Part shown: positions 25,585-51,200 of the stretch, piece by piece
Layout of the letters: the number at the start of each line of letters is the position of its first letter
Position numbering within the stretch: position 1 is the first letter of the stretch
DNA from: Escherichia coli
Lineage (GTDB): Bacteria; Pseudomonadota; Gammaproteobacteria; Enterobacterales; Enterobacteriaceae
Assembly: GCF_003334785.1 (NCBI RefSeq)
Contig: NZ_QOWV01000013.1
DNA length: 64,000 nt
Reading direction: 5' to 3' (one strand)
The notes under the pieces: generated by a model
Told to the model about the DNA's origin: nothing
What the model saw: the letters and a program-made list of their open reading frames with translations, nothing else
Database searches by the model: none
Program-made: the position numbers and the translations under genes

Positions 25585-25690
25585 GCCGGATGCGGCGCGA
25601 ACGCCTTATCCGGCCTACAAAAGTTTGCAAATTCAATAAATTGCAGAATTCATGTAGGCCTGATAAGCGAAGCGCATCAGGCATTTTTGC
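25585..25690. repeat. BIME (two inverted REP units)
   Basis: gccggatgcggcgcgaacgccttatccggcctac ... gtaggcctgataagcgaagcgcatcaggca; antisense track ORF 25502..25699 with ...[12 protein letters not shown]... is a REP artefact. Confidence 0.8.
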
Positions 25691-26881: not shown

Positions 26882-27784
26882 TTATGAAAGCATAGACCGT
26901 TTACCCTCCCTGGGTACGACGGAACAGGGGTCCTGATGGATAATTACATCCGATCCCGGAAAACGCCGTAAAATAGCCTGCTCTACCTGATCCGCCACCA
27001 TATGTGCCTGAACCAAAGGCAGAGAGTCTTCCATTTCCAAATGAATCTGAATAAAGCGGGTCGGCCCTGACTGCCGCGTGCGAAGATCGTGAGCGCCGCT
27101 AACACCCGGCCAGGAAGTCACGATATCAATAATTTCTTGCCGTTCCTCATCAGGCAATGCGCGATCCAGTAATGACTGTACCGCCTCATATCCCATGCGT
27201 AACGCGCTATATAAAATATAGATGCCGATTCCCAATGCAAACAGAGCATCGGCGCGATGCCAGCCGTACCAGGACAACCCCAGCGCCAGCAGAATTGCGC
27301 CGTTCATCATAACATCAGACTGGTAATGTAGCATATCAGCCCGCACCGCCTGGCTTTGCGTCCGCCGCACCACCCAACGCTGAAACGAGACAAGGATAAT
27401 CGTACAAATTAGCGCCACAATTGTCACGATAACCCCGACGCCTGGATCTGTCATCGGTGTTGGAGATATCAGATGTTGAATACCCGTCAAAAACAGGAAT
27501 AGTGCCGAACCGGAGATAAACATACTTTGCGCCAGCGCCGCGAGGGACTCAGCTTTACCGTGACCAAACGAGTGATTATCGTCGGCAGGTTGCAGGGAAT
27601 ATCGCACCACCAATAAATTCGTCAACGACGCGCCGATATCCACCAGCGAATCCACCAGCGCGGCGAGAATACTCACCGACCCGGTATACCACCATGCAAA
27701 AATTTTAATCAGCAATAGCAGCGAAGCCATCGCCGTCGCAGCAATCGCCGCCCGACTGACCAGCCGTCCATAAGATTGATTCAT
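26882..27784 (-). CDS. fieF: cation-diffusion facilitator Fe/Zn efflux transporter FieF (YiiP)
   Basis: Track ORF 26882..27802; 300-aa FieF from internal [35 protein letters not shown]. Confidence 0.93.
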
Positions 27785-27865
27785 AAATACTCCCGCTATC
27801 AACTGACGCTAGTATAACGGAAGCAAATCATCTGCAATGCATTAAGCAGCAGGCAAATTGAGGAT

Positions 27866-27932
27866 AAAAAAAACCCCCACAGCATGTGGGGGAAGACAGG
27901 GATGGTGTCTATGGCAAGGAAAACAGGGTTTA
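27866..27932 (-). ncRNA. cpxQ: candidate CpxQ sRNA (cpxP 3'UTR-derived) including the cpxP intrinsic terminator
   Basis: Immediately downstream of cpxP stop; hairpin cccccacatgctgtggggg followed by T8 on the minus strand; assignment as a processed sRNA rests on published biology, not on sequence alone. Confidence 0.45.
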
Positions 27933-28433
27933 CTACTGGGAACGTGAGTTGCTACTACTCAATAGCTTCAACGATGAACTTTTTTGCCATTGCGTCACGT
28001 CACGCAACTGCTCCATTCGTTGTTGATGTTTCTCGTTTAAAACCGCTTGCTGCTCCGGCGTTAACAGGCGATACATTTGGTTGCGGACTTTTGCCATCTC
28101 AACCTGACGAGCAATTTGCTCATTCGCCATTTTTTCTGCCTGTGCGCGCACAGCGTTTTCATCAAAATTTTCTGCGGTGACAAGGCGATGCATTGTCTCC
28201 AGTTCGCTAACATTAACAGGAGGCTGTTCGTGCCGGGCCTGTTGCATAAGATCTCGCATCTGCTGACGCTGATGTTCGGTTAAACTTATGCCGTCGAACA
28301 TATGGCTCTGCGTACTGCGCTGCGTAAGTTCTTCACCCGGATGCCAGTTATCGCCTGAACCGACTTCAGCAGCGTGGCTTAATGAACTGACTGCCAGCGT
28401 TGAGGCCATGACGGCAGCGGTAACTATGCGCAT
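27933..28433 (-). CDS. cpxP: periplasmic stress adaptor CpxP
   Basis: Track ORF 167 aa; CpxP (166 aa) from second Met [21 protein letters not shown]; two LTxxQ motifs. Confidence 0.95.
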
Positions 28434-30651: not shown

Positions 30652-30664
30652 ACTTCGCATTTGC

Positions 30665-30750
30665 AGGCAGGATAAGGCGTTTACGCCGCATCCGGCATTT
30701 GAGCAGGATGCCTGATGCGACGCTGATAGCGTCTTATCAGGCCTACACTC
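30665..30750. repeat. BIME (two inverted REP units)
   Basis: ggataaggcgtttacgccgcatccggca ... gcctgatgcgacgctgatagcgtcttatcaggcctac. Confidence 0.8.
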
Positions 30751-36517: not shown

Positions 36518-39530
<3,013 letters not shown>

Positions 39531-39534
39531 ACAC

Positions 39535-39765
39535 TGCCGGATGCGGCGCGAGCGCCTTATCCGGCCTACGGGTCGGCAACAGTTGTAGGCCTGATAAGAC
39601 GCGACAGCGTCGCATCAGGCATTGATTGCCGGATGCGGCACAAGTGCCTTATCCGGCCTACAGGTCGGCAATAGTTGTAGGCCTGATAAGACGCGACAGC
39701 GTCGCATCAGGCATTGATTGCCGGATGCGGCGCGAGCGCCTTATCCGGCCTACGGGTCGTGCATC
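39535..39765. repeat. tandem BIME cluster (about five REP palindromes in alternating orientation; about 95-bp unit repeated about 2.5 times)
   Basis: Repeated gccggatgcggcgcgagcgccttatccggcctac / gtaggcctgataagacgcgacagcgtcgcatcaggca units between rhaA and rhaD. Confidence 0.85.
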
Positions 39766-39796
39766 CGACAACACCGAATTTACAGGAACACAGAAC

Positions 39797-40621
39797 ATGC
39801 AAAACATTACTCAGTCCTGGTTTGTCCAGGGAATGATCAAAGCCACCACCGACGCCTGGCTGAAAGGCTGGGATGAGCGCAACGGCGGCAACCTGACGCT
39901 ACGCCTGGATGACGCCGATATCGCACCATATCACGACAATTTCCACCAACAACCGCGCTATATCCCGCTCAGCCAGCCCATGCCTTTACTGGCAAATACA
40001 CCGTTTATTGTCACCGGCTCGGGCAAATTCTTCCGTAACGTCCAGCTTGATCCTGCGGCTAACTTAGGCATCGTAAAAGTCGACAGCGACGGCGCGGGCT
40101 ACCACATTCTTTGGGGGTTAACCAACGAAGCCGTCCCCACTTCCGAACTTCCGGCTCACTTCCTTTCCCACTGCGAGCGCATTAAAGCCACCAACGGCAA
40201 AGATCGGGTGATCATGCACTGCCACGCCACCAACCTGATCGCCCTCACCTATGTACTTGAAAACGACACCGCGGTCTTCACTCGCCAACTGTGGGAAGGC
40301 AGCACCGAGTGTCTGGTGGTATTCCCGGATGGCGTTGGCATTTTGCCGTGGATGGTGCCCGGCACGGACGAAATCGGCCAGGCGACCGCACAAGAGATGC
40401 AAAAACATTCGCTGGTGTTGTGGCCCTTCCACGGCGTCTTCGGCAGCGGACCGACGCTGGATGAAACCTTCGGTTTAATCGACACCGCAGAAAAATCAGC
40501 ACAAGTATTAGTGAAGGTTTATTCGATGGGCGGCATGAAACAGACCATCAGCCGTGAAGAGTTGATAGCGCTCGGCAAGCGTTTCGGCGTTACGCCACTC
40601 GCCAGTGCGCTGGCGCTGTAA
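39797..40621 (+). CDS. rhaD: rhamnulose-1-phosphate aldolase
   Basis: Track ORF 39626..40621 reads through the BIME; 274-aa RhaD from internal [33 protein letters not shown]. Confidence 0.94.
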
Positions 40622-40630
40622 GGAGCAAAC

Positions 40631-40945
40631 ATGATCCGCAAAGCCTTTGTCATGCAGGTAAACCCCGACGCCCACGAAGAGTATCAGCGTCGGCATAATC
40701 CCATCTGGCCAGAACTGGAAGCAGTGCTGAAATCTCACGGTGCGCATAACTACGCCATCTATCTCGACAAAGCGCGTAATCTGCTGTTTGCCATGGTAGA
40801 GATTGAATCTGAAGAACGCTGGAATGCGGTTGCCAGCACTGATGTTTGCCAACGTTGGTGGAAATATATGACCGATGTTATGCCCGCTAACCCGGATAAC
40901 AGCCCGGTGAGTAGCGAGCTGCAAGAAGTGTTTTACCTGCCGTAA
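40631..40945 (+). CDS. rhaM: L-rhamnose mutarotase
   Basis: ORF track 104 aa [47 protein letters not shown]... Confidence 0.93.
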
Positions 40946-48246: not shown

Positions 48247-51200
48247 ATGCAGGTCAGCAGAAGGCAGTTCTTTAAGATCTGCGCTGGCGGTATGGCAGGC
48301 ACCACGGCAGCGGCACTGGGTTTTGCACCCAGCGTAGCACTCGCGGAAACCCGGCAGTATAAACTGCTGCGCACCCGCGAAACCCGTAATACCTGCACCT
48401 ATTGTTCCGTAGGCTGTGGGCTGTTGATGTACAGCCTCGGTGACGGAGCAAAAAACGCCAAAGCATCTATCTTCCATATCGAAGGCGATCCGGATCACCC
48501 GGTCAACCGCGGTGCACTTTGTCCGAAAGGCGCTGGCCTGGTGGATTTCATCCACTCCGAAAGCCGTCTGAAGTTTCCGGAATACCGTGCGCCAGGTTCT
48601 GATAAATGGCAGCAAATCAGTTGGGAAGAGGCGTTTGATCGCATCGCCAAACTGATGAAAGAAGACCGCGATGCTAACTACATTGCGCAAAACGCCGAAG
48701 GCGTGACTGTTAACCGCTGGCTCTCCACCGGGATGCTGTGTGCTTCCGCGTCGAGTAACGAAACCGGCTATTTAACGCAAAAATTCTCCCGCGCGCTGGG
48801 TATGCTCGCGGTCGACAACCAGGCGCGTGTCTGACACGGACCAACGGTAGCAAGTCTTGCTCCAACATTTGGTCGCGGTGCGATGACCAACCACTGGGTC
48901 GACATCAAGAACGCCAACCTCGTCGTGGTGATGGGCGGTAACGCCGCTGAAGCTCACCCGGTCGGGTTCCGCTGGGCGATGGAAGCCAAAATTCACAACG
49001 GCGCGAAGCTGATTGTGATCGATCCTCGCTTTACGCGTACGGCGGCGGTAGCTGACTACTATGCCCCTATTCGTTCCGGTACTGACATTGCTTTCCTGTC
49101 AGGCGTATTGCTGTACCTGCTGAACAATGAAAAATTCAACCGCGAATACACCGAAGCCTATACCAACGCCAGCCTGATCGTGCGTGAGGATTACGGCTTT
49201 GAAGATGGCCTGTTCACCGGCTACGACGCGGAAAAACGCAAGTACGATAAATCCTCCTGGACTTATGAACTGGACGAAAACGGCTTCGCCAAACGCGATA
49301 CCACGCTGCAACATCCGCGCTGCGTGTGGAACTTGCTGAAACAGCACGTTTCCCGCTACACGCCAGATGTGGTTGAAAACATCTGTGGTACGCCAAAAGA
49401 CGCGTTCCTGAAAGTCTGCGAATACATCGCAGAAACCAGTGCTCACGATAAAACTGCCTCGTTCCTGTATGCCCTCGGCTGGACGCAACACTCCGTTGGT
49501 GCGCAAAACATTCGTACGATGGCGATGATCCAGCTGCTGCTCGGCAATATGGGGATGGCAGGCGGCGGCGTTAACGCCCTGCGCGGTCACTCCAATATTC
49601 AGGGGCTGACGGACCTGGGGCTGCTGTCGCAGAGCCTGCCAGGTTACATGACGCTGCCAAGCGAGAAGCAGACCGATCTGCAAACCTACCTTACCGCCAA
49701 CACGCCAAAACCGCTGCTGGAAGGCCAGGTAAACTACTGGGGCAACTACCCGAAATTCTTCGTCTCTATGATGAAGGCCTTCTTTGGTGATAAAGCGACG
49801 GCGGAAAATAGCTGGGGCTTTGACTGGTTGCCGAAGTGGGATAAAGGCTACGACGTCCTGCAATACTTCGAGATGATGAAAGAGGGCAAGGTCAATGGCT
49901 ATATCTGCCAGGGCTTTAACCCTGTTGCCTCATTCCCGAACAAAAACAAAGTGATCGGTTGTCTGTCGAAACTGAAGTTCCTCGTCACCATCGACCCACT
50001 GAACACTGAAACCTCTAACTTCTGGCAGAACCACGGTGAGCTGAACGAAGTTGACTCGTCGAAGATCCAGACCGAAGTGTTCCGTCTGCCATCGACCTGC
50101 TTCGCGGAAGAGAACGGTTCTATCGTTAACTCAGGTCGCTGGTTACAGTGGCACTGGAAAGGTGCGGACGCCCCGGGGATTGCGCTGACTGACGGCGAGA
50201 TCCTCTCCGGTATCTTCCTGCGCTTGCGCAAGATGTATGCCGAACAGGGTGGCGCGAACCCGGACCAGGTGCTGAACATGACATGGAACTACGCCATTCC
50301 GCATGAGCCATCTTCAGAAGAAGTGGCGATGGAGAGCAACGGTAAGGCGCTGGCCGATATTACCGATCCGGCAACCGGTGCGGTTATCGTCAAGAAAGGC
50401 CAACAACTTAGTTCGTTCGCCCAATTGCGCGATGACGGTACAACCTCCTGTGGCTGCTGGATTTTCGCCGGTAGCTGGACGCCGGAAGGCAACCAGATGG
50501 CACGCCGTGATAACGCCGATCCGTCTGGCCTCGGTAACACGCTGGGCTGGGCATGGGCATGGCCGCTTAACCGCCGCATTCTGTATAACCGCGCCTCCGC
50601 AGATCCGCAGGGTAACCCGTGGGATCCGAAGCGTCAGTTGCTGAAATGGGACGGCACTAAGTGGACCGGCTGGGATATTCCGGACTACAGCGCAGCGCCT
50701 CCGGGTAGCGGCGTCGGGCCGTTTATCATGCAGCAGGAAGGCATGGGGCGTCTGTTTGCCCTCGATAAGATGGCGGAAGGTCCGTTCCCGGAACACTACG
50801 AGCCGTTTGAAACGCCGCTGGGAACTAACCCGCTGCATCCAAACGTTATCTCGAACCCGGCTGCACGTATCTTTAAAGACGACGCCGAAGCATTGGGTAA
50901 AGCCGATAAGTTCCCGTATGTCGGAACCACCTATCGTCTGACCGAGCACTTCCACTACTGGACCAAACACGCGCTGTTGAACGCGATTTTGCAGCCAGAG
51001 CAGTTTGTGGAAATCGGGGAGTCGCTGGCGAATAAACTTGGCATTGCCCAGGGCGATACCGTGAAAGTCTCCTCCAACCGTGGCTATATCAAAGCCAAAG
51101 CGGTGGTGACCAAACGTATTCGCACGCTGAAAGCGAACGGCAAAGATATCGATACCATCGGTATTCCGATTCACTGGGGCTATGAAGGCGTAGCTAAAAA

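Follow-up and report, generated by a model that had tools for sequence, protein, structure and literature searches.

What kind of repeat occupies the spacer between rhaA and rhaD in this Escherichia coli genome, how far does it differ from strain to strain, and what may it do to the operon that carries it? In this work, we addressed these questions in a window of 64,000 nucleotides (contig NZ_QOWV01000013.1; all positions given below without another reference are those of this stretch), using repeat searches, comparison with complete E. coli genomes, RNA folding, Rfam matches and the literature. Judged on its sequence, the repeat is one BIME-2, i.e. the five-REP allele of the known K-12 site REP299a-i. 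Taken jointly with the mechanism that we propose for it at the level of mRNA, gyrase and recombination, this explanation is given a probability of roughly 85 %.

Genomic context of the array

Coordinates of the rha genes were obtained by transferring the RefSeq annotation of NZ_CP010163.1, to which positions 39335-39965 (631 nt) are 100 % identical and in which this stretch is annotated as rhaA followed by rhaD. The transfer placed rhaB at 36805-38274, rhaA (L-rhamnose isomerase, + strand) at 38271-39530 with its stop codon TAA at 39528-39530, where the open reading frame also ends, rhaD (rhamnulose-1-phosphate aldolase, + strand, 274 aa) at 39797-40621 and rhaM at 40631-40945; rhaS and rhaR are divergent and lie upstream of rhaB. 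K-12 has the same gene order, rhaB-rhaA-rhaD-rhaM. The 631-nt stretch was matched, in whole or in part, in 5,426 out of 5,426 complete E. coli genomes, and among the matches listed every chromosomal row fell at rhaA and/or rhaD. The array lies wholly inside the 266-nt rhaA-rhaD spacer, i.e. it is extragenic and within the rhaBAD(M) transcription unit. The first-pass annotation, made from the letters of the window, had put a BIME array in this very spacer, and the identity with the annotated RefSeq record confirms that placement.

The strain to which NZ_CP010163.1 belongs, H2, was considered as the identity of the window on account of the 631-nt match, and was rejected in view of scattered substitutions elsewhere and of two extra IS1 copies in H2. 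The latter are found at 27191-27960 and at about 37000-37790 of locus L012 and are absent from the window at the corresponding positions, about 46530 and about 55560.

Both strands of the region 38800-40700 were scanned for signals that could separate the genes on either side of the array. Neither a sigma-70-like promoter nor an intrinsic (Rho-independent) terminator, defined as a hairpin followed by a T run, was found there, and none of the REPs has a T run behind it. Moralejo et al. reportedly saw, in 1993, no promoter activity upstream of rhaD.

The array also bears on the start of rhaD. In the mechanical list of open reading frames, this gene appears as a frame of 331 aa (39626-40621) that opens on a TTG inside a REP at 39626, against 274 aa for the annotated protein, the excess of 57 codons (39626-39796, + strand) being REP sequence. 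Because the list takes the first ATG, GTG or TTG that follows a stop codon, this upstream extension is an artefact of the ORF caller, as had been suspected from the sequence; annotated genomes start rhaD at the ATG. The start of rhaD is therefore ATG 39797, with a Shine-Dalgarno motif AGGA at 39784-39787 (+ strand), 9 nt before it.

Structure of the array

Tandem Repeats Finder delimited an array of 225 bp at 39535-39759, with a period of 92, 2.4 copies, 93 % matches, 0 % indels and a score of 415. A repeat search of the window retrieved three array copies in the same register, spaced by 92 and 92. Units 1 and 2 share 87 of their 92 bases, and the partial unit 3 is the same as unit 1 over 40 nt, up to its end at 39759; the alignment thus consists of in-register tandem copies of one unit, the point on which the initial description had been made to depend. 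That description had announced a unit of about 95 bp repeated about 2.5 times at near-identity: the tandem arrangement and the near-identity are right, and the figures become 92 bp and 2.4 copies. Chance cannot account for a 92-bp repeat at about 95 % identity. The G+C content of the array is 62 %, versus 52 % for the whole window.

An exhaustive Hamming scan located five REPs in the order Y+ Z2- Y+ Z2- Y+, so that the five palindromes of alternating orientation described beforehand are exact. The first Y-type REP (39536-39569, + strand; RNA hairpin of -21.3 kcal/mol) begins, as does its predicted stem, 5 nt past the end of the rhaA stop codon at 39530. It is followed by a tail-to-tail linker of 15 nt, GGGTCGGCAACAGTT (39570-39584), which varies between strains, then by the first Z2-type REP (39585-39620, - strand; RNA hairpin of -21.9 kcal/mol) and by a head-to-head, S-type linker of 7 nt, ATTGATT (39621-39627). 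The second Y-type REP (39628-39661, + strand; hairpin of -20 kcal/mol) carries the upper-stem variant GGCACAAGTGCC, in which a G-C pair is replaced by A-U, i.e. a compensatory change. The second Z2-type REP (39677-39712, - strand) and a third Y-type REP (39720-39753, + strand), identified by the scan and by unit identity and having the same sequence as the first, complete the array.

As the Y and Z2 queries of the scan were derived from the rha array itself, independent checks of the family were added. The two queries recovered all twelve REPs of K-12 REP325 at 1-4 mismatches, and the Y query recovered the Y REPs of four other elements of the window at 1-5 mismatches. The Rfam naRNA4 model, whose origin is the Y/Z2 pair of REP325, also recognises the rha array, with up to 77 bits.

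Assignment to the BIME-2 family

BIME-2 elements combine y and z2 REPs in inverse orientation with a short S linker, and occur as multiple tandem copies whose number varies between strains (PMC3333891). Of the five REPs in the rha array, three are Y and two are Z2, and Z1 is absent; the REPs alternate in orientation and are joined by short linkers (7 nt head-to-head, 15 nt tail-to-tail); 2.4 units are present here and one to nine REPs across E. coli; and the whole lies outside genes, between 39530 and 39797. Of the former name, 'triple tandem BIME', the attribution to BIMEs is retained and the rest is not: the structure is better called one BIME-2 of five palindromic units. Its geometry also fits that of REPIN-like doublets, and the K-12 site has been predicted by RAREFAN to be a RAYT-associated REPIN (bioRxiv 10.1101/2024.07.17.603846).

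In the other class, BIME-1, one y REP and one z1 REP are paired across a long L linker, in which an IHF site is often present (PMC3333891). The rha array resembles BIME-1 (RIP/RIB) in its Y REP and in its inverted-pair layout, but BIME-1 has a single pair, a Z1 REP and an AT-rich L linker of about 34 nt, whereas in the rha array the partners of the Y REPs are Z2, the linkers are short and the unit is tandemly amplified; no Z1 and Y around an L linker were found in it. Three elements of BIME-1 type do occur in the window (6205-6301, 25585-25682 and 53952-54049), each with Z1 and Y REPs and a linker of about 34 nt that bears the IHF-like motif ATTCAATNNATTG. With two of these three linkers, Rfam ES036 (CssrF) gives a match that exceeds its gathering score.

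It had been suggested that arrays such as this one bind IHF, and an IHF-binding element would be an alternative description of the site. The motif AATCAATGCCTGA is indeed present twice, on the - strand, in the S linker; it matches WATCAANNNNTTR at 12 of 13 positions, and this score equals that of the three BIME-1 L linkers of the window. However, it is to the conserved L linker of BIME-1 that IHF binding is attributed (PMC3333891), and the rha array has neither this linker nor a Z1 REP; there is no exact match to the consensus in the array, and the surroundings of the 12/13 match are not AT-rich as they are in the L linker. The suggestion is thus not supported for this array, IHF binding being a property of BIME-1, and we regard an IHF-binding element as very improbable.

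Counterpart in K-12 and gyrase cleavage

In a passage of a preprint on the mobilome, the K-12 site is given as EcoCyc REP299a-i, 'located within an operon (rhaBAD)' (bioRxiv 10.1101/2024.07.17.603846), and REP299 is counted there among the REPs that lie at most 15 nt from the upstream gene. The same site appears as 'BIMEs2 3543085-3543486, 401 bp, rhaA>-rhaD>' in a supplementary table of Sutormin et al. 2019 (PMC6379681 Table DS3). The window and K-12 share the locus, the flanks, the 92-bp unit and its register, and they agree exactly in their first and last units. The spacer of K-12 measures 450 nt and holds nine REPs, that of the window measures 266 nt and holds five, so that the window allele is the K-12 allele minus two internal 92-bp units. 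Searching the literature by gene name for a REP between rhaA and rhaD yielded no relevant study, and the site was reached only via REP299, through the mobilome preprint and the supplementary table. The site is therefore already known and catalogued, and it is an ordinary BIME-2.

Gyrase binding had been put forward as well, and it is backed by published in vivo cleavage of the K-12 allele, in which the number of gyrase cleavage sites was four with Cfx (ciprofloxacin), two with RifCfx (rifampicin plus ciprofloxacin), one with microcin B17 and none with oxolinic acid (PMC6379681 Table DS3). BIME-2 elements are strong gyrase sites independently of transcription, and y REPs are cleaved by it far more frequently than z2 REPs (PMC6379681). 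In the window too, the Y REPs of the rha array would be expected to serve as gyrase sites in the DNA.

Length variation among strains

To measure the spacer in other strains, the last 250 nt of rhaA and the first 250 nt of rhaD were joined as a BLAST query against complete E. coli genomes, and 500 was subtracted from the length spanned by each match to obtain the spacer. Matches were obtained in 5,363 of the 5,426 genomes, and in 5,340 the two halves of the query were found joined at one place. Length classes were defined from 59 rows, sampled at regular intervals along the ranking of the 5,363 genomes. They comprised spacers of 82 nt with one REP (12 rows out of 59), 174-184 nt with three REPs (8/59), 241 nt with one Y REP and an unrelated element (9/59), 263-276 nt with five REPs, which is the class of the window (14/59), 358-368 nt with seven REPs (6/59) and 447-460 nt with nine REPs (10/59). 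The classes with a REP array differ by multiples of 92 bp. In nine sequenced alleles representing the classes, the array followed the formula Y(Z2 Y)n with n from 0 to 4, in one shared 92-nt register. Variants of 10 nt in spacer length are due to differing sequence between the last REP and the ribosome-binding site of rhaD, the repeat being unchanged. The expectation that copy number at this site may vary between strains is therefore borne out, with one, three, five, seven or nine REPs among the 59 sampled rows.

Fifteen of the sampled rows had 500 flanking bases that were 100 % identical to those of the window, and alleles of one, five, seven and nine REPs were all present among them. Since identical flanks go with different arrays, the number of units changes faster than point substitutions accumulate. 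The array may gain or lose 92-bp units through unequal recombination or slippage, possibly aided by a REP-associated transposase.

Some parts of the array change little. A Y REP stands at the same place, 5 nt past the rhaA stop, in every allele examined, although in IAI39 it is split by an insertion sequence. Over nine strains that belong to different lineages, the Z2 REP together with the 7-nt linker ATTGATT is identical in 21 out of 21 copies; in the same nine strains, the Y REP has 13 variants and the 15-nt tail-to-tail linker has six.

Three alleles deserve separate description. In IAI39 (NC_011750.1; locus L008, 984-2500), an IS1397 of the IS3 family is inserted in the loop of the sole Y REP, with a target duplication of 3 bp; according to a reference cited in PMC3333891, as rendered there, IS1397 targets REP palindromes, and IAI39 offers a classic instance of this, located within an operon. 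In the seven-REP allele of strain Res13-Lact-EB12-05 (NZ_CP062908.1; locus L006, 659-958), RefSeq gives rhaD as a putative frameshifted pseudogene. In the 241-nt allele (e.g. NZ_CP109924.1; locus L004, 301-541), the Y REP is followed by an unrelated, GC-rich element of 175 nt with inverted CCCTC/GAGGG boxes. This element is complete in 787 of the 5,426 E. coli genomes (about 15 %), and a core of about 57 nt is dispersed, with a median of two places per genome. It appears to resemble the repeat called 'boxC'.

These observations have to be set against the possibility that the array is a neutral or selfish repeat, whose length shifts by recombination or RAYT activity, which has no meaningful effect on rha expression and at which gyrase cleavage is incidental. 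The coexistence of one, five, seven and nine REPs behind identical flanks speaks in favour of it, as do the replacement of the array by another dispersed repeat in about 15 % of genomes, the tolerance of IAI39 for an IS1397 insertion and the published finding that REP effects are, genome-wide, weak on average and dependent on context. However, a dispensable repeat would sit uneasily with the constant position of the Y REP behind rhaA and with the identity of the Z2 REP and S linker in all 21 copies across divergent strains, and REP325, a comparable intra-operon BIME-2, shifts the expression ratio of its neighbours about 35-fold. We consider a purely neutral array rather unlikely.

Predicted RNA folding and Rfam matches

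The + strand RNA of 39511-39810 was predicted to fold at -144.1 kcal/mol, compared with a mean of -103.0 (sd 5.2) for shuffled sequences, i.e. z = -7.9. Strong mRNA secondary structure, one of the properties initially attributed to the array, is thus predicted. Single REPs form hairpins of -20 to -22 kcal/mol, a tail-to-tail Y/Z2 pair reaches -54.6 kcal/mol and a head-to-head Z2/Y pair -46.7 kcal/mol in these predictions, and the ribosome-binding site of rhaD is unpaired in both the MFE and the centroid structures. Among the 13 distinct Y variants of the nine strains, 98 % of the stem cells are paired, and one pair of the upper stem covaries (A-U in eight variants, G-C in three, G-U in one, unpaired in one), a value as high being obtained in 28 of 500 shuffles. 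This covariation is consistent with a hairpin, though weak.

Another account of the predicted structure would be that the units encode small RNAs of the naRNA4 type (RF02564), acting with HU on nucleoid structure. Two matches on the - strand, at 39680-39750 and 39588-39658, lie above the gathering score of 59.5, with 77 and 76.6 bits, and the K-12 allele gives four such matches. In the window and in K-12, however, the matches above threshold are antisense to rhaBAD, whereas those of REP325 fall on the strand that is transcribed; on the + strand of the array only 56.5 and 53.2 bits are reached, so that no match on the transcribed strand attains the gathering score. A small RNA gene is further disfavoured by the lack of any sigma-70-like promoter in the scan of both strands described above, and by a model that recognises any Y/S/Z2 pair (e.g. 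that at 30666-30743). Moreover, REP325/naRNA4 itself was found to have no measurable effect on nucleoid compaction (bioRxiv 10.64898/2026.03.23.713779). The naRNA4 matches reflect the repeat family and not a small RNA gene, and units that encode such RNAs are, in our estimation, extremely improbable.

Other Rfam matches were noted in the window. A single Y/Z2 pair with a degenerate Y (5 mismatches) at 30663-30743 scores 78.6 bits with the naRNA4 model on the + strand. Above their respective gathering scores, SECIS_3 is matched at 48829-48887 (+), a position that corresponds to fdnG (formate dehydrogenase-N alpha subunit) in strain H2, a ClpQY promoter element at 11911-11968 (+) and an L31 ribosomal-protein leader at 7247-7299 (-).

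Proposed effect on rha expression

A classical intercistronic REP stabiliser is that of malE-malF. It belongs to a different operon and has fewer REPs than the rha array. More generally, REP hairpins between co-transcribed genes protect the upstream message from 3'-to-5' decay (PMC3333891; bioRxiv 10.64898/2026.03.23.713779).

The closest experimental parallel is REP325, between yjdM and yjdN. When REP325 is deleted, the RNA ratio of yjdM to yjdN is about 1, against about 35 with the element in place; REP325 stabilises the upstream message and attenuates transcription in a partly Rho-dependent manner, with a ladder of hairpin-terminated transcripts (bioRxiv 10.64898/2026.03.23.713779). According to the same work, tandem gene pairs with a REP are biased genome-wide towards the upstream gene, and REP effects are weak on average, with a large, context-dependent variance. 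REP325 and the rha array both consist of alternating Y and Z2 REPs between co-transcribed genes, start near the stop codon of the upstream gene and match the same Rfam model. They differ in that REP325 has 12 REPs with a period of 100 bp and linkers of 13 nt (head-to-head) and 17 nt (tail-to-tail), compared with 92 bp, 7 nt and 15 nt in the rha array, and in that REP325 scores 95-111 bits with the naRNA4 model, compared with 69-77 bits. The Y REPs are antisense to the mRNA in REP325 but sense in the rha array, and because of this opposite orientation the analogy is inexact.

By analogy with these systems, the most likely role of the array is to protect the rhaBA message and to reduce in part the read-through into rhaD. 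Transcription of rhaBAD would put the array into the mRNA, where it could fold as REP stems of about -21 kcal/mol or as long Y:Z2 hairpins of -47 to -55 kcal/mol. Such hairpins would block 3'-to-5' exonucleases, and the rhaB-rhaA message would be protected as it is by REP325 and the classical REP stabilisers. They may also attenuate part of the read-through with the assistance of Rho, leaving rhaBA transcripts in excess over rhaD-rhaM, possibly to a degree that scales with the number of REPs. An excess of rhaBA over rhaD-rhaM would be expected because REP325 favours its upstream gene. A difference in stability between the rhaBA and rhaD messages, as was proposed at the outset, is hence plausible on this analogy; in the searchable literature, we found no experiment on mRNA protection by REPs in rhaBAD. 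Against a tightly tuned need for one given array length stand the natural range of one to nine REPs, the replacement element of about 15 % of genomes and the IS1397 insertion that one strain tolerates.

The position of the first hairpin may matter in itself. Under the rule of Liang, Rudd and Deutscher 2015, as relayed in PMC12306157, a REP at most 15 nt past the stop codon of the upstream gene stalls terminating ribosomes. The rha array falls under this rule, as 5 nt separate the rhaA stop from the first hairpin (stop end 39530, REP start 39536), and the hairpin could hinder the termination of rhaA translation.

A stronger version of the protective role can be envisaged, in which the number of REPs (one to nine) is a heritable rheostat: each hairpin pair would add to attenuation and to the blocking of exonucleases, and the length classes would be kept or switched by selection for rhamnose use instead of drifting. 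We hold such a rheostat to be decidedly unlikely. If it were true, lineages would differ in their rhaBA:rhaDM stoichiometry, and the accumulation of L-rhamnulose-1-phosphate could change.

Conclusions

For annotation purposes, the spacer should be recorded as a BIME-2 (REP299, five-REP allele), rhaD should start at ATG 39797 and the naRNA4 matches should not be entered as small RNA genes. For the biology of E. coli, the locus provides an array that lies inside an operon, occurs in at least six discrete length classes across the species and varies among strains whose flanks are identical. Strains with one to nine REPs form a convenient set of natural alleles in which one could ask whether the number of REPs tunes expression within an operon, a question left by the 2026 work on REP325 (bioRxiv 10.64898/2026.03.23.713779).
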